Source: a virus (Duplodnaviria > Heunggongvirae > Uroviricota > Caudoviricetes). From it: a DNA stretch of 40,045 nucleotides. The position numbers were made by a program, and so were the translations under genes. Shown here piece after piece: positions 11,209-31,369 of this stretch. The stretch is taken from positions 1-40,045 of the IMG/VR virus record IMGVR_UViG_2778261504_000023. One strand, 5' to 3'. The notes below the pieces were generated by a model, which worked only from the letters and a program-made list of their open reading frames with translations, was not told the DNA's origin and searched no databases. Position 1 is the first letter of the stretch. Every line of letters starts with the position of its first letter.

Positions 11209-11539
11209 ATCCCCCGCAGAACGCAAAGCCGCGCAGCGCGCTCGGCAGTCCGCCGCCGGTGAGCGCAAAATTGAACTGGTGCTGGATAAGCAGGAGCAGG
11301 AAATGCTGGCGCGGAACTGCGCCGCCCGGCGCCCTGGTCGCGATCCCTATGAAATGGCCGAGTACATCGCGCTGCTGATCCGCCAGGATGATGCACGCGT
11401 GCGCGGGCGTATAAAATCGATCAGCAGAAAACGTTGCGGTAAGTGCGGCGAGAGAGTTCCAGTTAATTCATGCCCGTGTAATGGTGACTCGCAATGCTGG
11501 GTGACTAAAGGCTGGCATGAAACGAAATTAATAGTGTGA
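11201..11539 (+). CDS. Hypothetical protein with C-terminal Cys cluster, immediately upstream of late operon
   Basis: About 112 aa from GTG 11201 (SD GGAG); C-terminal CGKCG...CPCNGDSQC; stop overlaps GTGACATGTCAC palindrome. Confidence 0.4.
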   Translation: MAKSPAERKAAQRARQSAAGERKIELVLDKQEQEMLARNCAARRPGRDPYEMAEYIALLIRQDDARVRGRIKSISRKRCGKCGERVPVNSCPCNGDSQCWVTKGWHETKLIV

Positions 11540-11547
11540 CATGTCAC
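11536..11547. repeat. 12-bp perfect palindrome GTGACATGTCAC (copy 1 of 3)
   Basis: Exact 12-mer also at 13801..13812 and 31358..31369; each next to an intrinsic terminator-like hairpin. Confidence 0.8.
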
Positions 11548-11588
11548 GAGTAGATTATGCATGATGAATTTGATGTGTTTTGAATACT

Positions 11589-11614
11589 GCCGCCAACTAT
11601 GGCGGCTTTATTTT
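11589..11614 (+). terminator. Rho-independent terminator upstream of terminase genes
   Basis: GCCGCC-aactat-GGCGGC followed by TTTATTTT. Confidence 0.7.
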
Positions 11615-11625
11615 GCATGTTACTA

Positions 11626-11640
11626 TTACCACAACGGTAA
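11626..11640. promoter_or_regulatory. Palindrome TTACCACAACGGTAA upstream of terS
   Basis: Perfect TTACC-N5-GGTAA, 20 bp before terS start. Confidence 0.55.
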
Positions 11641-11660
11641 CAATTACCAGGGTGGTTATT

Positions 11661-12254
11661 ATGCCTGCTGAACCTAAAACCTATAAACGCAAATCAACGC
11701 AATTTAAGCCACTAACAGCAATGCAGGAGGCTTATTGCCAGTCATACATCAAAACGCCTGAAAACCAGACTCAGGCAGCGATTAACGCAGGATTCTCCCC
11801 AAATACAGCGGCAGTTAAAGCCAGTGTCATGATGCGCGATGAACGCATTCAAAAACGGATTGCCGAGTTGATGGAGGAGCGCAACAAACGAATGCGCGTC
11901 AGTGCTGATTATGTGCTGAGGCGCCTGGTGGAAATAGACCAGATGGACGTGATCGATATCCTTAACGACGATGGGAGCCTTAAGCCCATCCGCGAGTGGC
12001 CGAAAATCTGGCGCACTACGCTTAGCGGCTTTGATCTGTCATCGACCATCATGAACATGAACGAGGATTCGATAGAGACAATCCTCAAAAAAATTAAATG
12101 GCCTGACAAGGTGAAGAACCTCGAACTGATTGGTAAGCACGTCGACGTCAACGCATTCAAAGAACGCCTGGATGTTAATGTGAATGTGACAATTGCTGAT
12201 CGCATAGCGGCAGCCAGGAAGCGACTCAAAGAACGTCAGGATGGTAATCAGTGA
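11661..12254 (+). CDS. Terminase small subunit (P27-family type)
   Basis: 197 aa from ATG 11661; N-terminal region MPAEPKTYKRK...LTAMQEAYCQSYIKTPENQTQAAINAGFSP typical of terminase small subunits; stop overlaps terL start. Confidence 0.7.
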   Translation: MPAEPKTYKRKSTQFKPLTAMQEAYCQSYIKTPENQTQAAINAGFSPNTAAVKASVMMRDERIQKRIAELMEERNKRMRVSADYVLRRLVEIDQMDVIDILNDDGSLKPIREWPKIWRTTLSGFDLSSTIMNMNEDSIETILKKIKWPDKVKNLELIGKHVDVNAFKERLDVNVNVTIADRIAAARKRLKERQDGNQ

Positions 12255-13726
12255 CAGATACAGCGTTATCTCCTGAAGAGCAGTTGATCGAGGATATTGC
12301 AGGGTTCACTCACGATCCGCTTGGTTATGCCCTCTATGCGTTCCCGTGGGGGGAAGAGGGGACTGAACTGGCACATGCTACCGGTCCACGTCAGTGGCAG
12401 GCTGATGCGTTCCGAGAGATACGTGATCACCTGCAGAATCCAGAGACGCGCTATCAGCCGCTTATGCTGGCACGTGCTTCGGGTCACGGTATTGGTAAAT
12501 CCGCATTCATCTCAATGCTGATCAACTGGGGCATGTCCACTTGCGAGGATTGTAAGGTCGTGGTGACCGCCAACACCGACAACCAGCTACGAACGAAGAC
12601 CTGGCCGGAAATTATCAAGTGGTCGAACCTTGCTATCACGAAAGACTGGTTTACCTGTACCGCTACCGCGATGTACAGCAATGATCCTGGGCACGACAAG
12701 CGGTGGCGCGCTGACGCAATCCCCTGGTCTGAGCACAACACTGAGGCGTTCGCGGGACTACACAACGAGCGCAAACGCATCATCGTGGTGTTTGATGAAG
12801 CGTCGAACATTGCGGATCTGGTGTGGGAAGTTGCTGAGGGTGCGCTTACGGACGAAGACACTGAGATTATTTGGGTGGCGTTCGGAAACCCGACGCGTAA
12901 TACCGGGCGATTCCGTGAATGCTTCCGCAAATACAAGCACCGCTGGAAGTGTGCGCAGATAGACAGCCGGACGGTGGAAGGTACTAACAAACAGCAGTTG
13001 CAGAAATGGGTTGATGACTACGGGGAAGACAGCGACTTCGTTAAAATCCGTGTGCGCGGCATATTCCCTGATGCATCTGAATTGCAGTTTATCCCTACCG
13101 GTCTTACTGATGAGGCAATGAAACGGGTGGTAACCGCTGCGCAGGTGGCACATGCTCCGGTGATAATCGGTGTTGACCCGGCATATTCAGGCGTTGATGA
13201 CGCGGTGATATACCTGCGGCAGGGGTTGCATAGTAAGGTGCTATGGACTGGCAACAAGACCACTGACGATCTGATAATGGCGAAGCGTATCGCTGACTTT
13301 GAAGACCAGTACCAGGCTGACGCAGTGTTCATCGACTTCGGTTACGGAACTGGTCTGAAGTCAATCGGTGATGGCTGGGGACGTACATGGCAACTTGTTC
13401 CGTTCGGCGGTGCGTCCACTGACCCGCAGATGCTTAACAAGCGTGGGGAGATGTTCAACTCATGTAAGACATGGCTGAGGCTCGGCGGGATGCTGGATGA
13501 CCAGGAAACAGCGGACGACCTGTCGGCGGCAGAGTATAAAGTTCGAGTGGACGGTAAAATCGTTATCGAACCGAAGGAAGATATCAAAGAGCGACTTGGG
13601 CGTTCGCCGGGTAAAGGCGATGCGCTACTGCTGACGTTTGCTTTCCCTGTGTCGAAGCGTCTGCGAATTCCTGGGCAGCAGAACCAGCAAGGCAAGGCCA
13701 TCACAGATTATGACCCGTATGCTTAA
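12251..13726 (+). CDS. Terminase large subunit
   Basis: 491 aa; Walker A-like ASGHGIGKS; acidic nuclease-domain residues in C-terminal half; position after terS. Confidence 0.85.
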   Translation: MTDTALSPEEQLIEDIAGFTHDPLGYALYAFPWGEEGTELAHATGPRQWQADAFREIRDHLQNPETRYQPLMLARASGHGIGKSAFISMLINWGMSTCEDCKVVVTANTDNQLRTKTWPEIIKWSNLAITKDWFTCTATAMYSNDPGHDKRWRADAIPWSEHNTEAFAGLHNERKRIIVVFDEASNIADLVWEVAEGALTDEDTEIIWVAFGNPTRNTGRFRECFRKYKHRWKCAQIDSRTVEGTNKQQLQKWVDDYGEDSDFVKIRVRGIFPDASELQFIPTGLTDEAMKRVVTAAQVAHAPVIIGVDPAYSGVDDAVIYLRQGLHSKVLWTGNKTTDDLIMAKRIADFEDQYQADAVFIDFGYGTGLKSIGDGWGRTWQLVPFGGASTDPQMLNKRGEMFNSCKTWLRLGGMLDDQETADDLSAAEYKVRVDGKIVIEPKEDIKERLGRSPGKGDALLLTFAFPVSKRLRIPGQQNQQGKAITDYDPYA

Positions 13727-13800
13727 TCCGCTGGTGGGGATAATGTCGTTGATATCCTCTGATGAGGATAAAACAAAGCCAGCTCATCGGCTGGCTGTTT

Positions 13801-13812
13801 GTGACATGTCAC
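13801..13812. repeat. 12-bp perfect palindrome GTGACATGTCAC (copy 2 of 3)
   Basis: Preceded by hairpin AGCCAGC-tcatcg-GCTGGCT at 13777..13796, 50 bp after terL stop. Confidence 0.8.
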
Positions 13813-13816
13813 GGTG

Positions 13817-14188
13817 TTATTGCTCGCTTAGCTTCTGCTTCAGCAAGTAACCTTCGAGCATCCAGATTTTGTTTACAGCATTCTGCCGGGCAATCTTCCG
13901 ACCAATTTCTGCATCAAAATTTTCCGGACTTGCACAGGCACTCTCTCCGGTGACGGTGAAGCCGTTGCGCAGTACCAGGACGCAGAACGTCAGCAGAGAA
14001 AGTGATTCGTGCGGCTGGTAGTTTACCTCTCCGCCAGTATGTTTCGCTTTTATGGCTTTGCCAAAGGCACCATCTTCTGCTGTGAAATATGCCTCCTGAG
14101 CAATAATGCCTTCGATATGGTCTGGCGTAACGCGCGGTGCCGTTTTTCCTTTCTCAACGATTTCTTTTTCGATTTGCTGGTCGTTCAT
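13817..14188 (-). CDS. Hypothetical protein (123 aa) in antisense cassette with tRNA-Arg
   Basis: ATG 14188 with SD AAGGTGAG; no motif recognised; antisense to late operon. Confidence 0.5.
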   Translation of the reverse strand: MNDQQIEKEIVEKGKTAPRVTPDHIEGIIAQEAYFTAEDGAFGKAIKAKHTGGEVNYQPHESLSLLTFCVLVLRNGFTVTGESACASPENFDAEIGRKIARQNAVNKIWMLEGYLLKQKLSEQ

Positions 14189-14199
14189 AATCTCACCTT

Positions 14200-14224
14200 A
14201 AAAAAATGCCCGGCGAACCGGGCG
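14200..14224 (-). terminator. Terminator/attenuator-like hairpin immediately 5' of the RBS of gene 13817..14188
   Basis: On minus strand: CGCCCGG-ttcg-CCGGGCA followed by TTTTTTT then AAGGTGAG-ATG. Confidence 0.5.
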
Positions 14225-14301
14225 AACTGGAAGCAATGAGTTATGCCTTCCGTGGCTGTACGGGTTTACAGCATGAAGTCATCGCAATGGCGTCCTGCTG
14301 T

Positions 14302-14343
14302 AAAAAGGGCGGTGATAGTCCTTCAAGGGAAACCATCACCGCC
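14302..14343 (-). terminator. Intrinsic terminator-like hairpin downstream of tRNA-Arg (minus strand)
   Basis: On minus strand GGCGGTGAT-N18-ATCACCGCC followed by CTTTTT. Confidence 0.5.
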
Positions 14344-14386
14344 AAGCACCTGGAACTTCTGGCATCACGGTCCTTAGGCGTGATTC

Positions 14387-14463
14387 TGGCGTGGCATGCA
14401 GGATTCGAACCTGCGACCAACCGCTTAGAAGGCGGTTGCTCTGTCCAACTGAGCTAATGCCAC
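14387..14463 (-). tRNA. tRNA-Arg (anticodon UCU)
   Basis: Reverse complement folds as cloverleaf: acceptor GTGGCAT/ATGCCAC, D-arm GCTC/GAGC, anticodon stem ACCGC/GCGGT with loop CTTCTAA, T-arm GCAGG-TTCGAAT-CCTGC, discriminator G, encoded CCA. Confidence 0.85.
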
Positions 14464-14785
14464 AACGCTGAGAGCACTTAGCCTGTTAAGGCGCCACACT
14501 TTGTCGCGGCTCCATAAATGCTCTCATCGTTGTACCCTCGTCTCTTCCGAGGTGTCACACCGAATCGCCGGGATGGTGAATCCCCGTGCGCGGAATAAAA
14601 CCGCTCGACTTGCACATTCCGGCTACCTAGTTCGTTTGCCCGAGCAAGGGAGGGTGCCCCTTAAACGTATCCAGACCGCTATCGGCGCATGTGCCATACG
14701 CCGTACTGCTCAAAATAAAAGCTCACTCCACCTGTTCAATTTAACGACAAGCCAGTCAGGTTAATAACAGGAATGCACTCTATGC

Positions 14786-14850
14786 TTACCTGAAAGGTAA
14801 TAATTCGTGTGTTAAATGTCAAGTGTGTACGATAAATAAATCATATGTGG
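14786..14850 (+). promoter_or_regulatory. Putative head-operon promoter module: TTACCTGAAAGGTAA plus TATGTGGTT
   Basis: Palindrome 14786..14800; TATGTGG at 14844..14850; upstream of 14891. Confidence 0.5.
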
Positions 14851-14890
14851 TTAAATTGGTAATAATTTAATTGCGTACGGAGTCATTGAT

Positions 14891-15097
14891 ATGTGCATGG
14901 GTAGCTCACCATCAGTGCCTGCAACACCAGAAGTTCAGGCAGTACCACAGGAGCAGGATGCCGCCGTTGTTGATGCCCGCGACGAAGAAACACGTCGCCG
15001 TCGCGCTGCTGCTGGTCGTAGTTCTACGCTGCTTACCGGTTCTCAGGGCGACACATCAACCGCTAATACCAGCGGTAAAACGCTGCTTGGTCAGTAA
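14891..15097 (+). CDS. Hypothetical small protein upstream of portal (68 aa)
   Basis: Translation initiation region CGGAGTCATTGATATG nearly identical to that of the portal gene (CGGAGTCATTGAAATG). Confidence 0.45.
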   Translation: MCMGSSPSVPATPEVQAVPQEQDAAVVDARDEETRRRRAAAGRSSTLLTGSQGDTSTANTSGKTLLGQ

Positions 15098-15111
15098 CCG
15101 GAGTCATTGAA

Positions 15112-16782
15112 ATGGCGGAAACAACTAAAGAGCGATTGAACAAACAGTTCGCACAACTTGAAAGCGAGCGTCAGTCGTTCGAGCCGCACTGGCGCGAGTT
15201 GAGTGATTACATCAACCCGCGTGGTTCCCGCTTTCTGACTTCTGAGGTCAACCGTAACGATCGACGCAATACACGCATTATTGATTCGACCGGGACTATG
15301 GCGGCGCGCACTCTCGCCAGCGGCATGATGTCAGGCATCACAAGCCCCGCGCGTCCGTGGTTTCGCCTGGCTACGCCAGATCCTGAAATGATGGATTATG
15401 GCCCTGTTAAGTTGTGGCTTGAGGCGGTGCAGAACCGCATGAACGATATGTTTAATAAGTCGAATCTCTATCAGTCGCTGCCGCAGTTATACGGAAGCCT
15501 CGGCACATACAGCACTGGTGCAATGGCAGTGCTGGAGGATGACGAGGACATCATTCGCACAATGCCATTCCCGATAGGCAGTTACTACCTGGCTAACTCA
15601 CCTCGTGGCAGTGTGGACACCTGTTTTCGCAAGTTCTCTATGACTGTTCGTCAGCTTGTTCAGGAGTTCGGGCTAAATAACGTCAGCGAATCCGTAAAAA
15701 GCATGTGGGAAAGCGGCACCTACGAGAAGTGGATTGAGGTGATGCATTCGGTTTACCCGAACATTGACCGCGATACATCGAAGCTGGATAGCAAGAACAA
15801 GCCATTCAAATCGGTTTATTACGAGGTTGGCGGCGACAACGACAAGTTGTTACGTGAATCCGGATTCGATGAGTTTCCAATTATGGCTCCGCGCTGGGAA
15901 GTTAACGGAGAAGATGTTTATGGATCATCATGCCCGGGTATGCTGGCGCTTGGACCTGTTAAGGCATTGCAGCTTCTTCAGAAGCGCAAGTCGCAGTTGA
16001 TTGATAAAGCCACCAATCCGCCGATGGTTGCTCCGACTTCCCTCAAGAATCAGCGTGCCTCCCTTCTTCCTGGCGACATCACGTATATCGATCAGATTAC
16101 TGGTCAGGATGGTTTCAGGCCTGCTTATCTGGTTAACCCCAGTACAGCAGATTTGGTGGCAGACATTCAGGACACTCGTCAAATCATTAACAGCGCCTAC
16201 TTTGTCGATCTGTTCATGATGTTGCAGAACATCAATACCCGCTCGATGCCTGTTGAAGCGGTGATCGAAATGAAAGAAGAAAAACTTCTGATGTTGGGGC
16301 CGGTTCTGGAGCGTCTGAACGACGAATGTCTTAATCCTCTCATTGACCGCGCTTTCTCGATGATGGTGCGTAAAAACATGATGCCGCCACCGCCTGACGC
16401 GATGGAAGGTATGCCCCTGAAGGTCGAATACATTTCCGTCATGGCTCAGGCGCAGAAGTCTATCGGCCTGTCCAGTCTGGCGTCTACGGTCAACTTCATT
16501 GGTCAACTTGCGCAAGCGAAACCAGAAGCTCTCGACAAACTCAACGTTGATCAGGCGATCGATGCATTCGCTGATATGTCCGGTGTGTCTCCAACCGTCA
16601 TTGTTCCGCAGGAACAGGTTGAGCAGGCTCGCCAGCAACGGGCACAACAGCAACAGCAGCAACAAATGATGGCGATGGGGATGGCGGCGGCACAGGGTGC
16701 CAAGACGCTAAGCGAAGCTAAAACTTCGGATCCGAGTGTTTTGTCAGCTATGGCGAATGCAGTTAGTGGTCAGGGTGGGTAA
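15112..16782 (+). CDS. Portal protein (podovirus head-to-tail connector type)
   Basis: 556 aa; position after terminase; Gln/Ala/Met-rich C-terminus as in podoviral connectors; family assignment from memory. Confidence 0.75.
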   Translation: MAETTKERLNKQFAQLESERQSFEPHWRELSDYINPRGSRFLTSEVNRNDRRNTRIIDSTGTMAARTLASGMMSGITSPARPWFRLATPDPEMMDYGPVKLWLEAVQNRMNDMFNKSNLYQSLPQLYGSLGTYSTGAMAVLEDDEDIIRTMPFPIGSYYLANSPRGSVDTCFRKFSMTVRQLVQEFGLNNVSESVKSMWESGTYEKWIEVMHSVYPNIDRDTSKLDSKNKPFKSVYYEVGGDNDKLLRESGFDEFPIMAPRWEVNGEDVYGSSCPGMLALGPVKALQLLQKRKSQLIDKATNPPMVAPTSLKNQRASLLPGDITYIDQITGQDGFRPAYLVNPSTADLVADIQDTRQIINSAYFVDLFMMLQNINTRSMPVEAVIEMKEEKLLMLGPVLERLNDECLNPLIDRAFSMMVRKNMMPPPPDAMEGMPLKVEYISVMAQAQKSIGLSSLASTVNFIGQLAQAKPEALDKLNVDQAIDAFADMSGVSPTVIVPQEQVEQARQQRAQQQQQQQMMAMGMAAAQGAKTLSEAKTSDPSVLSAMANAVSGQGG

Positions 16783-16787
16783 TCACA

Positions 16788-17084
16788 ATGACAGATTACG
16801 AAGACGATCAACTGAAAGAAGAAAACGCCCGTAAGCAACGTGACATGACACGGCGTGAAATTGATGACATTCGCTTTGTCATGAGCAGTGAACAGGGGCG
16901 TCGCGTTGTCTGGTCGGTGCTGGAGAAAGGCCGTGTGTTTTCTGCTATCTCACCGATGGACGCTATGGCTATGGCATTTAATGAGGGGCAACGCAATCTG
17001 GCGCTGGAACTGTTTCAGCGCGTTATGGCGCATTGCCCTGAACAGTATTTGAAGATGGCCAAAGAGGCCAGTGAACAGGAGTGA
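16788..17084 (+). CDS. Hypothetical head morphogenesis protein (98 aa)
   Basis: Between portal and scaffold; SD GGTGGG. Confidence 0.45.
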   Translation: MTDYEDDQLKEENARKQRDMTRREIDDIRFVMSSEQGRRVVWSVLEKGRVFSAISPMDAMAMAFNEGQRNLALELFQRVMAHCPEQYLKMAKEASEQE

Positions 17085-17086
17085 TC

Positions 17087-17782
17087 ATGAATTTATTTGA
17101 GCGTTTGCTGTATCGCCGTCTTTGCAATGAGCAACCAGTCGATGGTGGAGCAGCTCCGGCTGCGTCAGAACCGTCAGCGCCTGCAGGTGATAACCCTGCT
17201 CCAGTTGGTGATCCATCACAACAGGAAGGTGATAAGCCACAACCTGTTGCTGATGGCGATAAACCTGCTGATGACAAAAAGCCTGAAAACGATAAGCAGG
17301 ATGAAAAAAAGGACGGCAATAAACCAGAGGGTGCGCCTGAGAAGTACGAGTTTCAGGCTGCCGAAGGCGTAGAGCTGGATACAGAAGCGTTGAAGGAATT
17401 CGAGCCGGTGGCGCGAGAACTTAACCTGACCAACGAGCAAGCGCAAAAGCTGGTTGATGCTTATCCGAAGATTATGGCAGGTGTTCAGCAGCGCCAGGCA
17501 GAAGCCTGGCAGAAAACAACCGAGCAGTGGGCTGCGGATGTAAAAGCTGACAAAGAAATCGGTGGCGACAAGTTGATTTTTAACCTTAGCTCCGCACAGC
17601 GTGCGCTTGACCAGTTCGGGACACCTGAACTCAAAGAATATCTGAACACCACCGGGCTGGGTAATCACCCTGATCTGGTCAAAACGTTCGTGAAAATCGG
17701 AAAGGCGATGTCTGAAGATGGCATGGTCACCGGTGGTAATGAAGGCCAGCGTAGTGCGGCCGAAGTGCTCTATGGCAAATAA
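17087..17782 (+). CDS. Capsid scaffolding protein (putative)
   Basis: 231 aa; Pro/Asp/Lys-rich low-complexity N-terminus then coiled-coil-like region; position directly upstream of major capsid gene. Confidence 0.55.
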   Translation: MNLFERLLYRRLCNEQPVDGGAAPAASEPSAPAGDNPAPVGDPSQQEGDKPQPVADGDKPADDKKPENDKQDEKKDGNKPEGAPEKYEFQAAEGVELDTEALKEFEPVARELNLTNEQAQKLVDAYPKIMAGVQQRQAEAWQKTTEQWAADVKADKEIGGDKLIFNLSSAQRALDQFGTPELKEYLNTTGLGNHPDLVKTFVKIGKAMSEDGMVTGGNEGQRSAAEVLYGK

Positions 17783-17796
17783 GAGAGGAAATGACA

Positions 17797-18783
17797 ATGG
17801 CGGTTAAAGGCTTAACTGCGCTAACGCTGGCTGACTGGGGTAAGCGCGTCGATCCAAACGGGAAAGTCGATAAGATTATCGAGCTTCTCGGTCAAACTAA
17901 CCCGATCCTTCAGGATATGCCTTTTGTCGAAGGGAACCTTCCTACCGGACACCGAACCACCATTCGTTCTGGTTTACCTTCAGCTACCTGGCGTTTGCTG
18001 AACTATGGTGTACAGCCAAGCAAATCAACCACAGTGCAGGTCACCGATTCCGTTGGCATGCTGGAAACCTATGCTGAAGTTGATAAGTCACTGGCTGATC
18101 TGAACGGTAATACCGCCGAATTCCGCCTGTCTGAAGACCGCGCATTTATTGAAGCGATGAATCAGCAGATGGCGCAGACACTGTTTTATGGTGATTCCAG
18201 CGTTAACCCTCAGCAGTTTATGGGACTGTCCTCCCGCTATTCCAGCCTGTCTGCGGGTAATGCTCAGAACATCATTGATGCTGGTGGCACGGGTACAGAT
18301 AACACCTCAATCTGGTTAGTGGTGTGGGGCGAAAACACCGTGCATGGCATCTTCCCGAAAGGGCAGAAGGCTGGCATCCAGATGGAAGATAAAGGCCAGG
18401 TGACACTGGAAGATGCGAATGGCGGCAAGTACGAAGGCTACCGTACCCATTACAAATGGGACAACGGACTTGCTCTGCGTGACTGGCGTTATGTTGTTCG
18501 CATTGCAAACATCGATGTCAGCAATCTTTCAGAACCTTCCTCTGCCGCAAATATTGCGAAGTTGATGGTTAAAGCACTGCATCGCATTCCAAATCGTGGC
18601 ATGGGTCGCCCGGTGTTCTACATGAACCGCACTGTAGGCCAGGCTCTTGATCTGCAATCTCTGGAGAAAACATCTCTGGCGATCAGCGTAAAAGAGACAG
18701 AAGGCGAGTGGTGGACTTCATTCCGTGGTGTACCAATCCGTGAAACTGATGCGCTTCTGGAAACAGAAGCCCGCGTGGTGTAA
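17797..18783 (+). CDS. Major capsid protein
   Basis: About 328 aa; position after scaffold; followed by small genes and an intrinsic terminator; SD AGAGGA 9 nt before ATG 17797 (alternative ATG 17791). Confidence 0.7.
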   Translation: MAVKGLTALTLADWGKRVDPNGKVDKIIELLGQTNPILQDMPFVEGNLPTGHRTTIRSGLPSATWRLLNYGVQPSKSTTVQVTDSVGMLETYAEVDKSLADLNGNTAEFRLSEDRAFIEAMNQQMAQTLFYGDSSVNPQQFMGLSSRYSSLSAGNAQNIIDAGGTGTDNTSIWLVVWGENTVHGIFPKGQKAGIQMEDKGQVTLEDANGGKYEGYRTHYKWDNGLALRDWRYVVRIANIDVSNLSEPSSAANIAKLMVKALHRIPNRGMGRPVFYMNRTVGQALDLQSLEKTSLAISVKETEGEWWTSFRGVPIRETDALLETEARVV

Positions 18784-18834
18784 CGCCTGTTATTAACCTG
18801 TGGGTCGTAACAGACCCACTAATGGAGAAAGAAG

Positions 18835-19272
18835 ATGATCACCGACAAACTGTTGATGTTCTCCGAAGCTCAGGCGGTTACGAATACCGCGGCTTCTACT
18901 GACGTAATCGATCTCGGTCCAATTGACGGAAAACGTCGTGATATCGGCGTGGGTTACCCGCTTGAGTTTTGGGCGCTGGTTAACACAGCCGCCGCGGCAA
19001 GCGGTGATGCAACTGTAAACATCCAGTTGCAGACGAGTGAGAATAACAGCTCATGGACCACTATTTATGATAGTGGCGCACTGGCAAAGACCGCCCTGAC
19101 AGCAGGTAAACGAGTTGTTTCTGCAAAGGTGCCTGCCGGTGTTCAGCGATATCTGCGCGTTAACTACTCCGTCGCAACTGGCCCACTAACGGCTGGCGAA
19201 TTCACTGCGGGTATCAGTCTTGATGTTGATGCCAATACGCCGTATCCGATCCGCTCAAAAGTAACTGGTTAA
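18835..19272 (+). CDS. Hypothetical virion protein (possible capsid decoration/stabilising protein)
   Basis: 145 aa; Ala/Thr/Val-rich beta-type composition; directly after capsid gene. Confidence 0.45.
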   Translation: MITDKLLMFSEAQAVTNTAASTDVIDLGPIDGKRRDIGVGYPLEFWALVNTAAAASGDATVNIQLQTSENNSSWTTIYDSGALAKTALTAGKRVVSAKVPAGVQRYLRVNYSVATGPLTAGEFTAGISLDVDANTPYPIRSKVTG

Positions 19273-19282
19273 GGTGATATCG

Positions 19283-19618: not shown

Positions 19619-19635
19619 GCCTCGCGGATCAGACA

Positions 19636-19656
19636 AGGGGCTTCGGCCCCTTTATT
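19636..19656 (+). terminator. Intrinsic terminator after capsid gene block
   Basis: GGGGC-ttcg-GCCCC followed by TTTATT. Confidence 0.65.
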
Positions 19657-19992: not shown

Positions 19993-20597
19993 TGGCCTCT
20001 GTAGTAGAGATCTGTAATCGTGCGCTGTCCAATATTGGCAACAGCCGCAGCATTAACAGCCTGACGGAAGCCAGCAAGGAAGCGGGGGAATGTTCGCTGC
20101 ACTTTGAGGCCTGCCGTGATGCTGTGCTTTCTGATTTTGACTGGAACTTTGCTACCAAACGCGTGGCGCTTGCAGATACGAGCAATCCACCGCCTGACTG
20201 GGAATATGCGTACCAGTACCCGTCAGATTGTCTGCGCATTACTGAAATTATGCTTCCTGGTGTACGCAATCCAACAGCATCAATGCGCGTTCAGTACGAA
20301 GTTGGTGCAGACACCAACGGAACAGGAAAGTTGATCTACACAGATCAGCCTCAGGCATGGCTCAAGTATGTCTCTCGCGTTACAGATGTGAACATGTTTG
20401 ATGCCATTTTTATGGAGGCGTTGGCCTGGCGTCTTGCGGCAGCTATTAACATGGCGCTGACTGGGAATGCAGACCTCGGTACGTTTGCCCTCAATATGTA
20501 CAATCGCGTGATTCTTAGTGCTGGCTCGCATAGCCAGAATGAATCACAGGAACCACAGCCACCGGTTGATGAGTTTACCATTGCGAGGTTGTCCTGA
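19992..20597 (+). CDS. Tail adaptor protein (T7 gp11-like tail tubular protein A, putative)
   Basis: About 201 aa; N-terminal pattern NRALSNIG...INSLTE resembles T7 gp11 N-terminus (recalled); size and position match. Confidence 0.55.
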   Translation: MASVVEICNRALSNIGNSRSINSLTEASKEAGECSLHFEACRDAVLSDFDWNFATKRVALADTSNPPPDWEYAYQYPSDCLRITEIMLPGVRNPTASMRVQYEVGADTNGTGKLIYTDQPQAWLKYVSRVTDVNMFDAIFMEALAWRLAAAINMALTGNADLGTFALNMYNRVILSAGSHSQNESQEPQPPVDEFTIARLS

Positions 20598-23068: not shown

Positions 23069-23532
23069 TGATCGATGTTCGAATTATTCCCGCCACCGAA
23101 GAGCATCTTCAGATGATTTTGCCGGATGTTCGTCAGGCTGATATTGACGAACTGTATGCGGTATCGCTGATGACTACCGAAGATGCGCTGCGTGTTGGTC
23201 TTCGCACTGCGACTATGGCCTGGTCAGGGTTCGCGAACGGAGAACTGGTAACCATGTTTGGCGTATCTCCGGCGTCAATGATCGGTGGCAATGGTACGCC
23301 CTGGCTGGTCGGAACCAGCCGTATCGAAAAATATCAGAAGACATTTCTTCGCCACTGCCGCCCTGTATTGCAGCAGATGCTGGCAGTTTATCCGCGCCTG
23401 GAAAACTATGTCGACGAGCGAAACCATGTTGCCAAAGCATGGCTGCACTGGCTTGGATTCAGGCTTGAAGAAGCCGCGCCTTATGGTGCTCTTGGTCTTA
23501 ATTTCCACAGATTTCACATGGAGAGAAAATAA
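23068..23532 (+). CDS. Internal virion protein (T7 gp13-like, putative)
   Basis: 154 aa; size and position; loose similarity to T7 gp13 C-terminal region. Confidence 0.45.
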   Translation: MIDVRIIPATEEHLQMILPDVRQADIDELYAVSLMTTEDALRVGLRTATMAWSGFANGELVTMFGVSPASMIGGNGTPWLVGTSRIEKYQKTFLRHCRPVLQQMLAVYPRLENYVDERNHVAKAWLHWLGFRLEEAAPYGALGLNFHRFHMERK

Positions 23533-24077
23533 TGTGCGATCCGGTTATTGCTGGTGGCGCAATGCTCGCCATGAGTGGCATTCAGGCATACACCCAGTAC
23601 CAACAGGGAAAGTATGCCTCGAAGGTTGCAGAAGCGAACGCAGATATAGCCACTGCTCAGGCAAATGATGCAATAAACAGAGGTAACGCTGAAGCTGAGC
23701 AACGGCGCAGAGAGACCCGACAGCGGCTTGGTACACAAGCGGCGACAATGGGGGCTACCGGCGCTGATTTATCTACAGGTAACGCGCTGGATATATTTGG
23801 CGACACTGCCCAGTTTGGCGCTCTTGATTCGCTGACGACGGTGAATAACGCGCAACGCGAGGCTTACGGTTATCAGGTTCAGGCTGCCAACTATAAAGCA
23901 GAAGCCAGTTCAGCCCGTAAACAGGGGAATGTGGGAGCAGCAACAACATTGCTCACTGCGCCTCTGAAGGCATACGGTGCGTACCAGATGTTTGGTGGGA
24001 CGTGGAGTCCGTTTACTCAAAGCACTCCTGCGCCAATCGGGGCAGCAGCAGGAACCAGATTACCCGGAGGATTATAA
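23532..24077 (+). CDS. Internal virion protein (T7 gp14-like, putative)
   Basis: 181 aa beginning MC..., Ala/Gln-rich; TAATG coupling at both ends. Confidence 0.45.
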   Translation: MCDPVIAGGAMLAMSGIQAYTQYQQGKYASKVAEANADIATAQANDAINRGNAEAEQRRRETRQRLGTQAATMGATGADLSTGNALDIFGDTAQFGALDSLTTVNNAQREAYGYQVQAANYKAEASSARKQGNVGAATTLLTAPLKAYGAYQMFGGTWSPFTQSTPAPIGAAAGTRLPGGL

Positions 24078-26590
24078 TGCCAGTCGTACCAACAGTATCC
24101 GGACGTCAGGTTGAGAGCCGTGGAGTTCAGTCAGCAGGCTTGCAGACGTTTTCTCAGCCAGGTATTGGTGATGCTTTTGTTCGGGCAGGGGCAGAGACTA
24201 TTGATGTTTTTGGTCAGGCAAAACAGCGTGCCAATATCGCTCTGGCTCAGGAGGCATCTCTTAACCTCAGTCAGATAAGCAGCGATCTGCTGAATAACCC
24301 TGAAACAGGGTTGCTTAACCTGAAAGGGAAAAATGCTATTGGAAAAGGCCATGAGTATACGCAGCAGTTTGATGCTCAGGTCGAACAACTGGCTATGTCG
24401 CTGCCGGATGAACAGGCTCGTAATACTTTCATGCAGCAGGCGCAGCAGCAGCGCATTCAGTTCACTACGCAGGCCGGGCGGCACGAGATAGGGCAAATAA
24501 ACGCCTACGAAGAAGGCCAGTTTCAGGCTACGCTGCTGAACAATGGTAAAAATGCCGCAGCATTGTATGGCGACAACGCCGCATACGTATTGGCTAATAA
24601 GCAAACTTTCCAGCAAATTGAGGATTACGGCATTGCGCATGGCTGGAGCGACGAGCAAATCCAGGCCAAGAAAGTCGAGTTTAAAGAGAAGGTTGCTGAT
24701 GCCGCATTGTCCCAGTGGTCGGCAAACAATGCGACCGCATTCATCCAAAGTAATGGCGAGTTAAGTGATACTGCTGCTGGAGCTCGCCGTGCTGTAGCAG
24801 ATAGTGACTCTTCCGAGCGTGCCCGTGGCATACGCAACAATAACCCAGGAAATCTCGAATACAGCAAAACTAATCCGTGGGTAGGCCAGACCGGTGATGA
24901 TGGTCGATTTGCTAAATTCGAAACACCTGAACACGGGATTCGTGCATTAGGGCGAAACCTGATGTCGTATCAGAGGCAGGGTATTGATACCGTCAGCGAG
25001 ATAATTAATCGCTGGGCACCGCCTACTGATAAAAATGACACTATGTCGTATATCAAAGCAGTGTGCGAACAACTTGGCGTTTCTGCTGATGAGCCTCTTG
25101 ATGCATCTAATCCTGATACCCTGAAGGCGCTTTGTGCAGCCATTATCCATCATGAGAACGGTAGCCAGCCATACAGTGATCAGCAGTTAACTGCTGGTGT
25201 CAGTGCAGCACTTGGTTTATCAACAATTCCAACCAACACCAAACGCTATACCGGTAATGCAGCATTCGATGCGGCATCTCCTGAGGCGCAGGCAAGTTTT
25301 ATGCGACAGGCGGATCAACTGCGTCGGCAGCAGCAGGCTGAATATAAAACGATGATTGACAGCCAGGTTCGCGATGCGACAGCTGCGTATATGCGTGGCG
25401 TTGAATTTCCTAACCCACCTGGTGAGGCTGATTTTATTGCAGCTTATGGAGTAAGAGAAGGAAACCTGCGATATACCGAGTTCAGAAATACGCAAATCGC
25501 CGGACAGTATATAGGCTCTTTCCGCAACATGCCGACAAGCAGCATTACAGCATATGTTGAGCAATTACGCCCGGATACTGGTGAGACAGGGGAGGGGTAT
25601 GCGGCACGCGCAGCTCTTTATGACAACGTTGTTTCGGCTGCAAATCAGGTGATAAAGCAGCGGCAGTCGGATCCTGTGCAGTTCTCTCTTGCCTCCGGAC
25701 AGGCAAAGCCTATCGACATGAGCAATAAGGATAACTTTGGACAGAGCGTTGCCTTGCGTGCCGCTCAGGTCAGTGATCTTGCTAAGTCATATGGCACTCC
25801 ACTGACGTTCTTTTCCAAAGACGAGGCCAATCAGATCGGTGTTTTCTTTCGTGATGCTCCAGTTTCCCAACAGGCAGCATATCTCGATACCATCAGGCAG
25901 AGCACTGGTGGTGGGCAGGTGTATATGTCAGCACTACAGCAGATCAGTGCCAACGCTCCATCTGCTGCCGTTGCCGGGATACTGATGGATAAGCCTGGTG
26001 GTATTTTGGCAGAAAAAAACTGGTTTAATCCTGATGTTTCCGTGTCTCCTGAAACCGCAGCGCAGACAATTCTTGCTGGTGCGGCGGCTCGTAAGGGTAC
26101 TGATGACGCGAAAGGTATTCCGATGCCTAAAGATGCTGATCTTCGCCTTGAGTTTTCTGACATGGTGAAGGATGCATTTGCTGGTGATGCTCAGGGGGCA
26201 TCAATGGCATACGAGATCGCAAAGGACTATTACGCTGGTGTGATGGCGAAAAAAGGCGTGGTATCAGGCGAAATTGACAATGATATCTGGAAACAGGCTG
26301 TTAACGTAGCTACAGGTGGCGTGCATGACTATAACGGAATGGGGAATGTTCTTTTGCCGTGGGGAATGTCTGCAGAGCAATTCGATAAGCAGGTTAATCA
26401 GGTTTGGAATGAACAAGTTGTTGGCACAGGGATAAAAACACCGCCTGGTCAGTATGGTTTGCAAAGTTACGGCGATAGTCAGTACCTGGTGAAACTTGGT
26501 ACTGGTTATCTGCTGAAAGATGATGGTTCTCCCGTTGTTCTTGATCTGACTCAGAAGCGTCAGAGATTCTCCGGAAATATTCCGCAATGA
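24077..26590 (+). CDS. Internal virion / ejection protein (837 aa) with conserved RNNNPGN-containing domain
   Basis: ATG 24077 overlapping upstream stop; segment ARGIRNNNPGNLEY...GRFAKFETPEHGIRALGRNL, a motif I recall from virion-associated cell-wall-acting domains (uncertain). Confidence 0.5.
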   Translation: MPVVPTVSGRQVESRGVQSAGLQTFSQPGIGDAFVRAGAETIDVFGQAKQRANIALAQEASLNLSQISSDLLNNPETGLLNLKGKNAIGKGHEYTQQFDAQVEQLAMSLPDEQARNTFMQQAQQQRIQFTTQAGRHEIGQINAYEEGQFQATLLNNGKNAAALYGDNAAYVLANKQTFQQIEDYGIAHGWSDEQIQAKKVEFKEKVADAALSQWSANNATAFIQSNGELSDTAAGARRAVADSDSSERARGIRNNNPGNLEYSKTNPWVGQTGDDGRFAKFETPEHGIRALGRNLMSYQRQGIDTVSEIINRWAPPTDKNDTMSYIKAVCEQLGVSADEPLDASNPDTLKALCAAIIHHENGSQPYSDQQLTAGVSAALGLSTIPTNTKRYTGNAAFDAASPEAQASFMRQADQLRRQQQAEYKTMIDSQVRDATAAYMRGVEFPNPPGEADFIAAYGVREGNLRYTEFRNTQIAGQYIGSFRNMPTSSITAYVEQLRPDTGETGEGYAARAALYDNVVSAANQVIKQRQSDPVQFSLASGQAKPIDMSNKDNFGQSVALRAAQVSDLAKSYGTPLTFFSKDEANQIGVFFRDAPVSQQAAYLDTIRQSTGGGQVYMSALQQISANAPSAAVAGILMDKPGGILAEKNWFNPDVSVSPETAAQTILAGAAARKGTDDAKGIPMPKDADLRLEFSDMVKDAFAGDAQGASMAYEIAKDYYAGVMAKKGVVSGEIDNDIWKQAVNVATGGVHDYNGMGNVLLPWGMSAEQFDKQVNQVWNEQVVGTGIKTPPGQYGLQSYGDSQYLVKLGTGYLLKDDGSPVVLDLTQKRQRFSGNIPQ

Positions 26591-28389
26591 GTTACTTTGG
26601 CCTTAATCCAGTAAACCAGAATCAGCAGCTTGACGAAGCAGCATCAAATCCAGCGGGCTTTAACAGCGATGTTGGTTTTTTCGACAATGCTGTAGGAGCG
26701 GCATTGTCTGGTTTGTACTCCGGGCTGGTGGCAAAGCCAGATCAGTTGCTATGGGCAGGGATGGATAAAATCGTATCCCCGATTGCTCAGTTTGTTAACG
26801 AAAACACCTCGCTCAATGACACTTCAGTTTCATACATTGCCGAGCAGAGAAAACTAGCAGAGCAGCAGGTTAAGCGGCTGACGCCTGATGCGGCGACAAC
26901 TGGAACCGCCGGGCAGGTTCTTTATGGGTTGTTCGATATGGGCGGGCAGGCTGTTGTCGGTACAACGCTCGGTGGTCCGGTCGGAGGTGCAGCGGCGGTA
27001 ACTTCGCTACAGGGTTTTTCTGAGTTTGAACGGCTGACAGCACAGGGTGTTGATTTTAGGACGGCGCAGGAAGCAGGATTAGTGCAGGGTATTACTGCTG
27101 GTGCCGGAACACTGATCCCTATGAGCCTCGGGTTACGTGCTGGTGGTGCGCTGGCGGAAGGTGTGGCGGCCCAGCTTCCGCGGACGGGTGAAAGTTCAGT
27201 GCGACGCGCCGCAGCAACAGCAGTACGTGCAACGCCAGATATTGCCTATGCCGCAGGTACAAATATTGCGTTCGGTATGGCACAGCGTGGGCTTACTGCA
27301 AAAACGCTTCGTGATGGTGGCTATAGCGAAATGGCTAACCAGTATGATGTGTTGGATCGACAGGCAATTGCTATTGATGCTGTTCTTGGAGTGGCGTTTG
27401 GTGGTGTCGGCAGATTTATTAACTCTCGCGGCGAGTCTACAAGCGCACCAAATTTTTCACCAGTTGATGTTGATGCTGCACTGGCGGCGAATGCCGCTCA
27501 TCATGCTGAAATTGATATTGCGCCCGGCGTGCCGATCAACGTGCTTTCGCGCAATTCTCACATTCAGGCTCTGCGAAAAGCTATGTCTGATGTTAGCCAG
27601 GGGAGACCTGTAGACGTTGCCAGCATTGTTGAGTCTGCATCTTTCAGTGAAATTCCTGGGCGCAAGAGTCTGCTGTCTCAGGCAGTTAATGAGGCTCTGT
27701 CATCTGTAGATGATGGAGTAACGGCGCGCGCTATAGAAAATCGGTTGCTTGAAGAACAGGCCGCGCAGCTTTTGCCGCGTGGCGATAGACAGGTTTACCA
27801 GTCTGAAATCGCTAATAGCCAACGAATTATTGAAAATCTCACTGAACAGCGCGCACAAATTCTTGCAGAAGAGCCAACCGGTAGCGGTAAATCTTTGTCT
27901 CGTGCTCGATCAGATAAACAGGTCAGACTTCGCGATATTGACCAACGAATCCGGCAGGCACAAGAACGCCTGGAATTTTCCCGTAACGCGTTGGCACCGC
28001 ATGAGCCTGGCGGTCAGTTTTTTGAAGCTCGAGCAGAACTGGCACGGAGACAGCAGGCTGAAAGTGAACTTAATGCTCAGGCTGTTTCATTCTATAAAAC
28101 AGCAGAGGTCAGGACGCCAGACGAAGTAGCTCCTTTTGAGCCTGATAAAATATTGCAACAGGCAGAACAAAAAATGATGGCGGATCAGGCAGGAGATATT
28201 GATCTGCGCATAGCTGAAGACTCGCTGCTTGAATCACCTGACATGATAATCACCGTGCTGGATGATGATGGTAATCCACAATCGCGCAGCGCGCGTGAAG
28301 TACTGGATGAAGCGAACAGGGAAAGTGAGCAGGCAATACAGGATTCCAGCCTGTTTGATGTCGCTGTGGCGTGTTTCTTGAGAGGTTAA
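26587..28389 (+). CDS. Internal virion / ejection protein (600 aa)
   Basis: Large Ala-rich protein in series with neighbours; overlapping stop/start. Confidence 0.45.
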   Translation: MSYFGLNPVNQNQQLDEAASNPAGFNSDVGFFDNAVGAALSGLYSGLVAKPDQLLWAGMDKIVSPIAQFVNENTSLNDTSVSYIAEQRKLAEQQVKRLTPDAATTGTAGQVLYGLFDMGGQAVVGTTLGGPVGGAAAVTSLQGFSEFERLTAQGVDFRTAQEAGLVQGITAGAGTLIPMSLGLRAGGALAEGVAAQLPRTGESSVRRAAATAVRATPDIAYAAGTNIAFGMAQRGLTAKTLRDGGYSEMANQYDVLDRQAIAIDAVLGVAFGGVGRFINSRGESTSAPNFSPVDVDAALAANAAHHAEIDIAPGVPINVLSRNSHIQALRKAMSDVSQGRPVDVASIVESASFSEIPGRKSLLSQAVNEALSSVDDGVTARAIENRLLEEQAAQLLPRGDRQVYQSEIANSQRIIENLTEQRAQILAEEPTGSGKSLSRARSDKQVRLRDIDQRIRQAQERLEFSRNALAPHEPGGQFFEARAELARRQQAESELNAQAVSFYKTAEVRTPDEVAPFEPDKILQQAEQKMMADQAGDIDLRIAEDSLLESPDMIITVLDDDGNPQSRSAREVLDEANRESEQAIQDSSLFDVAVACFLRG

Positions 28390-28394
28390 ATTAA

Positions 28395-30869
28395 ATGAGA
28401 CAGGAATGTATACAAGCGGTCCAGCAGGCGGCGCAGCGCACGTTAACGGCGCGAGAAATACAGAACATTGAAGACCGCATTTATCGAAATATGCGCTCCA
28501 TTGCTCGTGATGACCCGATGTCGTGGAGACAACTTTCCGAATCAGAGCGGCTATATCGTGCAGCACAATTGGCATCTGAAGGATTACAGCGAGAAGCGGC
28601 ATTAAAGAAACGTCGTGTGGCCCTCACTATAGCCGCACGTCAGAGATTGGATAAATTTATCAATAGCTATCAAGGGGCTGATGGGAAACTTGGCGCTCTT
28701 AACCGTACTATTGCTTTTAATGCAGACGGTAAATCGAATTTCCTCTCTGTTGAATCCAGAACAAAAGCCACCCGTGATTATGCATTGAGTCAATTGCAGG
28801 AGGCATTCGAAGCAGTTGATCCTCGCTTTTTTGGTCTGTTTGAAGATGAAGCGGGCGTACGTGACCTGGTATATGAAATGCGGGGGCAAAATACTGGCAA
28901 TGCTAAAGCAAGAAAAGGTGCTAAGGCGTGGAGAGAAGTTACAGAGCTGCTGCGCCGCCGGTTTAATGATGCTGGTGGGGACATTGGCTATCTCGAAAAC
29001 TGGGGGATCCCTCAACATCATTCTATGGAAAAGGTTGGGGCGGTATCAAAAGATAAATGGGTTAGCGATGTTATAGGTAAGCTGGATCGCAAATATTATA
29101 CCCTAGCCGATGGACAACTGATGAACGATGCCGAGTTGTCTGCATTTCTTGGAGAGGCTTATAACACGATCGCTACTGGTGGGCTGAATAAGCTTACTGA
29201 TACCGGAATGCGAATTTCCGGCGCACGTGCTAACCGTGGTAATGCATCACGACAGATACATTTCAAAGATGCAGATTCCTATCTGCAATATCAGCAACTT
29301 TATGGCGATCGCTCTCTATGGGAAATCATGGTCGGTCACCTTGAAGGTATCAGTAAAGATATTGCATTGGTGGAAACATATGGCCCAAACCCCGATCATG
29401 TTTTCCGCTCTCTTCTTGATCAGGTGAAGGCAGAAACGGCAACAGCTAACCCGAGTAAAACCGGTAAAGTCGAGCGGCTGGCGAACAACACAGAGAATCT
29501 GTACAACTTTATTTCCGGAAAGACACAGCCTGTAGCGAATCCGCACATCGCGCGCTGGTCTGACAATATCCGCAACTGGCTGGTTGCCAGCCGACTAGGA
29601 TCCGCGTTGCTGTCATCGTTCTCTGATCTTGGAACCATGTATCTGTCTGCGAAGGTGACCAACCTTCCAATGAACCAGTTATTCCGCAACCAGCTTGAAG
29701 CTATGGACCCAACGAACCGTACTGAGCTTGCGCGGGCGCGCCGCGCTGGTCTGGCGATGGAATCTCTACTTGGCAGTGTTAACCGCTGGGCGATGGATAA
29801 TATGGGGCCGTCTGTGTCTCGTTGGGCGGCGACGGCGGTAATGCGTGCCAGTGGGCTTACAGCATGGTCAGATGCGCACAAGCGCGCCTATGGCGTAACC
29901 ATGATGGGAAGCCTGGGAGAAGTAGTGTCACGGACACCAGACCTTCGTAGCCTCGATGACTCTGATTTTCGTATCCTGAAAAGCAAAGGGATTACTGACA
30001 CAGACTGGAGTGTATGGAAGCTGGCGCAACAGGAGGACTGGGGGAACGGTAATAATACGATGCTGACACCGGAAAGCATTATGCGTATCCCTGATTCAGC
30101 AGTTAAACATCTTGGTGAGCCTGAACGCGTGAAATTTGAGGCAATGCGTAAACTGCTCGGTGCCGTAACTGAAGAAGTTGATATGGCTGTTATTACACCG
30201 GGTGCACGTGAGAAACTGATAACCGGTTCTGGTATTCAGCGTGGAACATGGAAAGGTGAATTAACGAGAAGTGTTTTCCTGTTTAAATCGTTCCCTATCT
30301 CGGTGGTTATGCGTCACTGGTCACGCGCTATGGGTATGCCGTCGGCTGGTGGGCGTGCGGCATATATTGCGACGTTTATTGCCAGTACGACCATTCTTGG
30401 CGCTTTGTCGCAGCAACTTAACGACCTTGCGTCTGGTCGTAATCCTCGCGAGATGACAGGAGAAGATGCTGCTAAATTTTGGCTTGGTGCTCTACTGAAA
30501 GGTGGTGGTCTTGGCCTTTACGGTGACTTTTTATTGTCAGATCACACTAGGTACGGAAGCGGCGCGCTGGCGTCGATGCTTGGCCCGGTAGCTGGTCTGG
30601 TTGATGACGTAGTGAAGATTGCTCAGGGCATACCGTTAAATGCTGTGGAAGGGAAGAGTGAGCAGACTGGTGGTGATCTGGTGAAGCTGGGGAAAGGTTT
30701 GATGCCAGGTGCGAATCTCTGGTACTTAAAGGCGGCTCTCGATCATATGATCTTTAACCAGATGCAGGAGTATTTTTCACCAGGCTATTTGCGTAAAATG
30801 GAGCAACGTTCGAAGAAAGAGTTTAACCAGACATACTGGTGGCGACCTCAGGATGTCACTCCGCAATAA
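28395..30869 (+). CDS. Internal virion / ejection protein (824 aa, gp16-like position)
   Basis: SD GAGAGG; large protein at position of podoviral core proteins. Confidence 0.45.
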   Translation: MRQECIQAVQQAAQRTLTAREIQNIEDRIYRNMRSIARDDPMSWRQLSESERLYRAAQLASEGLQREAALKKRRVALTIAARQRLDKFINSYQGADGKLGALNRTIAFNADGKSNFLSVESRTKATRDYALSQLQEAFEAVDPRFFGLFEDEAGVRDLVYEMRGQNTGNAKARKGAKAWREVTELLRRRFNDAGGDIGYLENWGIPQHHSMEKVGAVSKDKWVSDVIGKLDRKYYTLADGQLMNDAELSAFLGEAYNTIATGGLNKLTDTGMRISGARANRGNASRQIHFKDADSYLQYQQLYGDRSLWEIMVGHLEGISKDIALVETYGPNPDHVFRSLLDQVKAETATANPSKTGKVERLANNTENLYNFISGKTQPVANPHIARWSDNIRNWLVASRLGSALLSSFSDLGTMYLSAKVTNLPMNQLFRNQLEAMDPTNRTELARARRAGLAMESLLGSVNRWAMDNMGPSVSRWAATAVMRASGLTAWSDAHKRAYGVTMMGSLGEVVSRTPDLRSLDDSDFRILKSKGITDTDWSVWKLAQQEDWGNGNNTMLTPESIMRIPDSAVKHLGEPERVKFEAMRKLLGAVTEEVDMAVITPGAREKLITGSGIQRGTWKGELTRSVFLFKSFPISVVMRHWSRAMGMPSAGGRAAYIATFIASTTILGALSQQLNDLASGRNPREMTGEDAAKFWLGALLKGGGLGLYGDFLLSDHTRYGSGALASMLGPVAGLVDDVVKIAQGIPLNAVEGKSEQTGGDLVKLGKGLMPGANLWYLKAALDHMIFNQMQEYFSPGYLRKMEQRSKKEFNQTYWWRPQDVTPQ

Positions 30870-30878
30870 GGAAGTGTT

Positions 30879-31052
30879 GTGTTTTTAATTATTTTGAGTG
30901 TGATAATTTCTGGTGGGTTGTTATTTATTGACCGCTACAAATATTTTCTTAACCCTCAGACTCAAGCTATTTGCTGGTTCATCTTTGTTGTGCAGGGAAT
31001 AGTTCTTGTTGCAAGCCTTATTGAGGGGAGGCCTCTGATTTTTACTGGGTAA
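30879..31052 (+). CDS. Hypothetical small membrane protein (57 aa)
   Basis: Not in ORF track; GTG 30879 with SD AAGGAAG; VFLIILSVIISGGLLFIDRYKYFLNPQTQAICWFIFVVQGIVLVASLIEGRPLIFTG, two hydrophobic segments. Confidence 0.3.
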   Translation: MFLIILSVIISGGLLFIDRYKYFLNPQTQAICWFIFVVQGIVLVASLIEGRPLIFTG

Positions 31053-31064
31053 ATAGGTGACTAC

Positions 31065-31361
31065 ATGCAAGCTATAGGATTCATTGTTTATATCGTCGTT
31101 GGTCTTTTTCAGTTGGCAGCAATTATGGCTGGGCTTGAATCATGGTGGGGATTGCACTGGATAATTGCAGCCCCCATTGCTTTCATCGTGAGCTATATTC
31201 CATTTGTTGGAGCGATTGTTGGTATGGTTGGCGCTGTGGATGTATGGCGGTGGGAGTGGTGGCAGGCTGGCCTTCTCTTCTTTGGTGGGATCATATTTGC
31301 TATTGTCTGCGGTGGAATGTCATCATTTTTCGAATGGCTATCATTCAGAAAAAGAGCGTGA
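31065..31361 (+). CDS. Hypothetical membrane protein (98 aa, about 3 TM segments)
   Basis: Highly hydrophobic; SD AGGTGA; stop overlaps GTGACATGTCAC palindrome. Confidence 0.5.
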   Translation: MQAIGFIVYIVVGLFQLAAIMAGLESWWGLHWIIAAPIAFIVSYIPFVGAIVGMVGAVDVWRWEWWQAGLLFFGGIIFAIVCGGMSSFFEWLSFRKRA

Positions 31362-31369
31362 CATGTCAC
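31358..31369. repeat. 12-bp perfect palindrome GTGACATGTCAC (copy 3 of 3)
   Basis: Overlaps stop codon of 31065..31361 and directly precedes terminator hairpin. Confidence 0.8.

Follow-up and report, generated by a model that had tools for sequence, protein, structure and literature searches.

What is the function of a 12-bp palindrome that occurs in three perfect copies at the module junctions of a single phage genome? This question is raised by IMG/VR virus record IMGVR_UViG_2778261504_000023, an epsilon15/phiV10-like (Uetakevirus) prophage of E. coli, whose whole stretch of 40,045 nucleotides was analyzed and is referred to as the window below. An earlier note on this DNA had suggested that the palindrome is either a protein-binding site tied to termination or antitermination or a recombination linker at which accessory cassettes were inserted. 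On balance, we favor the view that it represents the cognate double-stranded DNA site of a 112-residue protein, encoded by the gene that ends in the first copy, and that the bound protein would act as a roadblock or insulator of transcription. Taken separately, the predicted pairing of protein and palindrome is likely, and the roadblock function is a tentative proposal.

The palindrome GTGACATGTCAC is found exactly at positions 11536-11547 (copy 1), 13801-13812 (copy 2) and 31358-31369 (copy 3) and nowhere else in the window, while 100 dinucleotide-preserving shuffles of the window yielded no copy, which bears out the three exact 12-mers reported before. Copy 1 overlaps the stop of a gp49-like gene, with the TGA (11537-11539) of open reading frame 11192-11539 lying inside the palindrome, and is located 41 nt 5' of the terminator of the early-right operon. 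Copy 2 is positioned between terL and an antisense accessory cassette, 4 nt from a hairpin at 13777-13796. Copy 3 overlaps the stop of the last gene of the structural operon (open reading frame 31065-31361, TGA at 31359-31361 inside the palindrome) and abuts a terminator hairpin. Each copy coincides with the end of a transcription unit, and the flanks of the three differ among themselves. The stop codon overlaps at copies 1 and 3, the adjoining terminators and an antisense tRNA-Arg cassette were all located where the earlier note had placed them. Allowing up to two mismatches to GTGACATGTCAC added only one site in the window, the one-mismatch copy GTGACATGACAC at 16840-16851 inside a Bbp19-like gene (coding sequence 16788-17084). 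This copy is probably a non-functional coding coincidence, since phiV10 and TL-2011b carry a different one-mismatch version (GTGACATGGCAC) at the matching codon positions. The relaxed pattern GTGACNNGTCAC with at most one mismatch gave 5 matches in the window, compared with 0.94 expected.

Conservation was then assessed among epsilon15-like relatives. Prophages of this type are very common: of 5,426 complete E. coli genomes, 990 gave a match to the 3.1 kb that surround copies 1 and 2. The exact 12-mer is present at all three orthologous places in Salmonella phages epsilon15 and SPC32H, Enterobacter phage Tyrion and Klebsiella phage BUCT711, with flanks that have diverged or been exchanged, and at two of the three places in phiV10 and TL-2011b, the third phiV10 copy having one mismatch. 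Copy 1 is kept at the stop codon in epsilon15, SPC32H, Tyrion, BUCT711 and TL-2011b. This retention at orthologous places in phages of Escherichia, Salmonella, Enterobacter and Klebsiella, despite diverged flanks, is in good agreement with the earlier claim that only the palindrome is selected. In 80 IMG/VR relatives (1.3 Mb), 133 exact 12-mers were detected. Copy 1 sits on the gp49-like stop codon in 77 of these relatives, ca. 50 further 12-mers follow terL 2.2-2.9 kb downstream, and essentially none were found outside these two places. Copy 2 is exact in 50/77 relatives. Copy 3 was recovered in 71 of 78 further loci as an invariant 30-bp unit consisting of the palindrome, an A and GGCCGCTTTCGCGGCC, and this unit was found with four kinds of sequence on its left and at least three on its right. 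Terminators as well as repressor, IHF and RNase III sites are annotated in the records of epsilon15 and phiV10, but not the palindrome.

The candidate reader of the site is encoded by the last gene of the early-right operon (11201-11539, plus strand), whose product belongs to the epsilon15 gp49/N15 gp46 family (PHROG 536, labeled 'transcriptional regulator'). This 112-residue protein has no sequence match in Pfam, NCBIfam, PADLOC or PDB. A tblastn search with it returned 150 phage records of very diverse types, and an exhaustive homologue search resulted in 151 cluster representatives. Several single-protein scans of viral contigs were negative. In 11 of 15 lineages encoding a homologue, the pattern GTGAC-N2-GTCAC is located on or near the homologue's own gene. 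The GTGAC half-sites are invariant and the central dinucleotide is lineage-specific (AT, TG/CA, CG, AC, AG or GG). Ten homologue-bearing genomes contain 27 copies of the pattern vs. 0.37 expected, whereas none were found in lambda, P2 and a 200-kb sample of E. coli K-12, taken from four regions and not the whole genome (0.27 expected). The Ter piece of this sample yielded four true matS sites and served as a positive control. Based on these counts, the motif is not a host repeat but travels with the gene. The two findings that the earlier note had set against its own proposal, a common host repeat and absence from related phages, were thus not observed, the motif being lacking in the K-12 sample and present in relatives. 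Its suggestion of a protein-binding site is strongly supported by these sequence comparisons, with the gene ending in copy 1 as the candidate and the half-sites shared by its homologues in unrelated phages.

N15 gp46 and its phiKO2 homologue carry GTGACTGGTCAC on the stop codon, and both genomes contain two further orthologous GTGAC-(TG/CA)-GTCAC copies (N15: 28550, 33237 and 39269; phiKO2: 9567, 14447 and 20324, including the stop codon site). Besides the site on the gp46 stop, which lies 12 nt before gene 47, one copy is found in the 5' part of repA and the third upstream of the anti-immunity (icd/antA/antB) region, possibly in a promoter spacer. In a Yersinia P2-like phage, GTGACGCGTCAC sits on the stop codon of gp13. 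The motif is likewise on the stop codon in the metagenomic sequences L090, L092 and L100, 2 nt past the stop in Vibrio phage VPHZ6 and metagenomic L091, on the start codon in L099 and 3 nt before the start in L103. Three copies each are present in Vibrio phage K233, one of them 19 nt before terS, and in L098. As a separate observation, VPHZ6 (20263-20330), L090 and L092 share a conserved stretch past the gene, GGCTTTGCAGGTGG...TTTTACAC, downstream of the palindrome.

To what fold does the candidate protein belong? An AlphaFold model based on 53 diverse homologues reached a predicted local distance difference test (pLDDT) score of 91.4 and comprises a basic N-terminal helix, an extended segment, two further helices (the second one long) and a four-cysteine zinc knuckle at the C-terminus. 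Within the basic helix, R8 is invariant and R13 near-invariant. The model, itself a confident one, is read as a putative ribbon-helix-helix core followed by a C-terminal zinc knuckle. Its best structural match was MatP bound to matS, a weak one with low scores as is usual for monomers of the ribbon-helix-helix fold. A Foldseek search with the model returned nothing significant, and a fold search against BFVD retrieved solely a fragment of the protein's own family. No similarity to MatP was detected at the sequence level, where the MatP homologue search gave near-identical E. coli sequences and no MatP profile. Residues ~46-106 align weakly with F-plasmid TraR and E. coli YbiI, which carry DksA/TraR-type zinc fingers (hmmsearch E value 0.04, hhalign probability 77%). 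TraR binds the secondary channel of RNA polymerase. The aligned C-terminal half consists of a long helix followed by CxxCGxx[LI]P...G...C. Compared with the CxxC-N17-CxxC finger of DksA/TraR, which comes after a long helix with an acidic tip, the last CxxC is cut to a single cysteine, an extra cysteine lies upstream and the acidic tip residues are not conserved in the family. The resemblance hints at a contact with RNA polymerase.

The site itself resembles matS, a 13-bp sequence reading GTGAC[AG]N[TC]GTCAC (PMC3603311). The half-sites are identical and the phage site equals matS minus one central base, giving 12 bp and a 2-bp spacer. Motif and modeled fold thus independently point toward MatP-like recognition, although the phage protein does not qualify as a member of the MatP family. 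MatP, the organizer of the Ter macrodomain in E. coli, is built from a four-helix bundle, a ribbon-helix-helix domain and a C-terminal coiled coil (PF06303, PF17414) while the phage protein has 112 residues and a zinc knuckle, is phage-encoded and has sites at the ends of operons and at the stop of its own gene. In most lineages with the motif, a short palindrome is located on or within a few nt of the stop or start of the homologue's own gene, as would be expected for the operator of a ribbon-helix-helix protein. Known pairs of ribbon-helix-helix repressors and operators (Arc/Mnt of P22, CopG, ParD/TacA) differ in that the phage site is found at the 3' end of the gene and not in a promoter, that the phage protein carries an extra zinc domain and that additional phage sites adjoin terminators. 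Because the outer half-sites are conserved and the center is free, reading by elements outside the beta-sheet is suggested.

How might such a pair work in the window? The predicted ribbon-helix-helix dimer would read two invariant GTGAC half-sites, with the two central bases free to vary between lineages. Gene and site would be inherited together, the site overlapping the gene's own stop and extra copies marking the ends of transcription units. The protein would be made late in the early phase and then occupy its sites, where the bound dimer may form a symmetric, bidirectional roadblock or insulator that backs adjacent intrinsic terminators. The terminators in question are a stem-loop at 11589-11606 (plus strand) followed by TTTATTTT, 3' of copy 1 and before the repressor operators and terS; a stem-loop at 13777-13796 with the minus-strand tail TTGTTTTA, which adjoins copy 2, serves a minus-strand gene and also follows terL on the plus strand; and a stem-loop at 31370-31387 (plus strand) with the tail TGTTTTTA, directly 3' of copy 3. 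In each terminator's own direction, the palindrome lies upstream of the stem by 41, 4 and 0 nt for copies 1, 2 and 3, respectively. With a roadblock at these places, fewer transcripts of the early operon would run on into terS-terL, and convergent units would be shielded from each other's read-through at copies 2 and 3. Protein bound at copy 1 could additionally feed back on its own mRNA. A precedent of this kind is the LacI operator O3, which is located at the 3' end of lacI and acts as an autoregulatory roadblock, with SsrA tagging. The protein families are unrelated and the likeness lies in an operator placed across the 3' end of the gene for its own regulator; a bound protein of this type can therefore truncate its own transcript and block read-through. 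Since every operon in the window comes with a promoter region that contains the repressor operator, as outlined below, a late activator is not obviously required and insulation is a plausible need. The comparisons show conservation, co-occurrence of gene and site, a modeled fold and the positions; binding itself and the way in which RNA polymerase would be affected are inferred.

Several observations weigh against the proposal. Four distant lineages with a homologue have no motif. Copy 2 is inexact in 27 of the 77 relatives mentioned above, mostly with a different cassette after terL and no near copy, although six of the 27 retain a one-mismatch variant. In SPN1S and SPC32H, the protein lacks the N-terminal basic helix, yet all three palindromes are intact. 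The in-frame sequence upstream of the SPC32H gene (38396-38632) reads MATTTTRRQNLLELELVLD..., and because the two phages represent one near-clonal lineage, loss of the helix may be recent. Some copies are located inside essential coding regions, namely repA of N15/phiKO2 and a structural gene of BUCT711, where a strong roadblock would be costly. Finally, N15/phiKO2 and most Vibrio-phage sites have no terminator nearby and lie at gene junctions or inside repA. The tie to termination or antitermination put forward in the earlier note therefore holds by position in epsilon15-like phages only, and the idea of a roadblock at terminators is limited to this one lineage.

A further possibility is that, in a widespread family of phage proteins, a MatP-like reading module has been combined with a TraR-like zinc finger on private sites, each equal to matS less one base, by which the phage would mark its own DNA. 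Such a protein could bring a secondary-channel effector to RNA polymerase at defined terminators, so that a DNA-tethered factor would control termination site by site, or it could mimic MatP on phage DNA by looping it or displacing MukBEF, sparing the Ter domain of the host. We regard this combination as not very probable.

Among the rival explanations, antitermination of the type known from lambda Q survives best, although we consider it unlikely. The protein on the palindrome would load onto RNA polymerase and read through the terminator, joining the early, terminase and structural operons in a late cascade; the palindrome would act 5' of the terminator or within a promoter whose -35 element is the GTGACA half. 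The order of elements is indeed that of Q and the PR' element, with the gene closing the early operon, which is the place of Q in lambdoid phages, the site directly downstream, then a terminator and the late genes. The resemblance of the C-terminal half to the RNA-polymerase-binding zinc finger of TraR/DksA would also fit, but family members do not conserve TraR's acidic tip, and the protein is unlike any Q family and has no match in Pfam. At copy 1, GTGACA-18-CATGAT was flagged as promoter-like and epsilon15 has GTGACA-17-TAAATT at the matching place. Promoter matches are nevertheless at background level (4 found, 4.0 expected), which speaks against a promoter at copy 1, and no convincing promoter or pause signal was recognized. 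In addition, there are three sites instead of one, copy 2 comes after the hairpin with respect to plus-strand transcription, and N15/phiKO2 and P2-like phages already carry Q or Ogr, so that the protein coexists with Q in N15/phiKO2.

A second rival takes the likeness to MatP/matS literally. The phage protein would bridge its sites as an organizer, looping out terS-terL and the structural operon, or exclude the host condensin, or else host MatP itself would bind. The shared half-sites and the modeled fold speak for this idea, but a 2-bp instead of a 3-bp spacer would rotate the half-sites by ~36 degrees relative to matS and both the four-helix bundle and the C-terminal coiled coil are missing from the model. 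Together with the lack of MatP sequence similarity, this makes an organizer improbable. The linkage of the site to a phage gene further argues against a reader that is supplied by the host only. No 13-bp matS was found in the window or in N15, lambda, P2 and the Yersinia phage. Vibrio K233 contains GTGAC-N3-GTCAC once, in addition to three sites with the 2-bp spacer. Bobay et al. detected no matS in 500 prophages.

Of comparably low probability is a recombination linker, in which palindrome and terminator form a shared junction for the exchange of accessory cassettes. Such a role would be compatible with the protein-bound site that we favor. Mosaic breakpoints do coincide with the palindrome, in line with the linker suggested by the earlier note. 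Similarity breaks within a few bases of it at site 2, where eight different right flanks and five left flanks were found, and the copy 3 unit shows the same behavior with its varied contexts on either side. A further case is the relative L078, in which the terminator hairpin and the left half GTGACAT are kept ~30 nt past the terL stop and are followed by unrelated sequence. In this relative, the recombination junction falls at the center of the palindrome. However, any conserved functional element between variable regions gives an equal pattern, 12 bp is short for homologous exchange and the site has no associated recombinase or nuclease domain. A linker also fails to explain the link to one protein family across unrelated phages and the copies in repA.

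An element acting in RNA, i.e. a hairpin at the mRNA 3' end read by an RNA-binding protein or RNase, is very improbable: each copy is transcribed and lies shortly before a terminator hairpin and one N15 site lies just upstream of the gene 47 ribosome-binding site, but the 12-mer alone forms a 4-bp stem of -1.2 kcal/mol, no better than shuffles and without competition with the terminator, the central bases vary without compensation, conservation being confined to the half-sites, and a double-stranded DNA-binding fold is predicted for the linked protein. Other candidates were ruled out. The partition (SopB) sites of phiKO2/N15 form a different palindrome at different places (phiKO2: GTGCGACCACGGTCGCAC), pac/cos sites are excluded because N15 and the P2-like phage have the motif at a large distance from cos while the phiV10 record merely begins past the stop codon, and a host repeat of the repetitive extragenic palindromic (REP) type is excluded by the zero count in the K-12 sample, lambda and P2. 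CRP, LexA and other host operators include, to our knowledge, none with a 2-bp spacer. A true matS or host MatP site has the wrong spacing, and prophages avoid matS.

Within this field of explanations, the pairing of the 112-residue protein with the palindrome describes a putative regulatory system that is carried by roughly one in five complete E. coli genomes, and the protein and its 12-bp site represent a testable pair. Examples of the pair come from podoviruses, telomere phages, P2-like myoviruses and Vibrio phages. Among the papers searched, none contained the 12-mer or its degenerate form, and nothing was found in them on the organization of late transcription in epsilon15/phiV10-like phages. 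Pairs of a ribbon-helix-helix protein and a palindrome are known as such; the new feature here would be a recognition code that resembles MatP/matS. If the predicted binding is correct, it would assign a function to a family without a Pfam or NCBIfam model and explain the junction element at three module boundaries. The pair would further offer a naturally occurring version of MatP/matS recognition, with half-sites kept and spacing changed, that could be used to study half-site spacing in this fold.

Besides the 12-mer, a second palindrome, TTACC-N5-GGTAA, is over-represented in the window with 12 copies vs. 0.5 expected (5031, 5743, 5791, 8050, 8112, 11626, 11644, 14786, 32153, 33186, 33566 and 36841). 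It matches sites annotated as prophage-repressor operators in epsilon15 and is distinct from the 12-mer, which rules out a repressor operator as identity of the latter. As TTACC-N5-GGTAA is located upstream of the repressor gene, terS, the portal operon, the tailspike and the lysis genes, every operon in the window appears to be under direct repressor control. To the right of copy 2, the antisense cassette consists of a PF13876 gene of the Sf6 gp66/N4 gp49 family (13817-14188, minus strand) and a tRNA-Arg(TCT) (14387-14463, minus strand). The cassette occupies 13817-14463, between the portal operon and terL, a position at which no fewer than eight distinct sequences are found among relatives.

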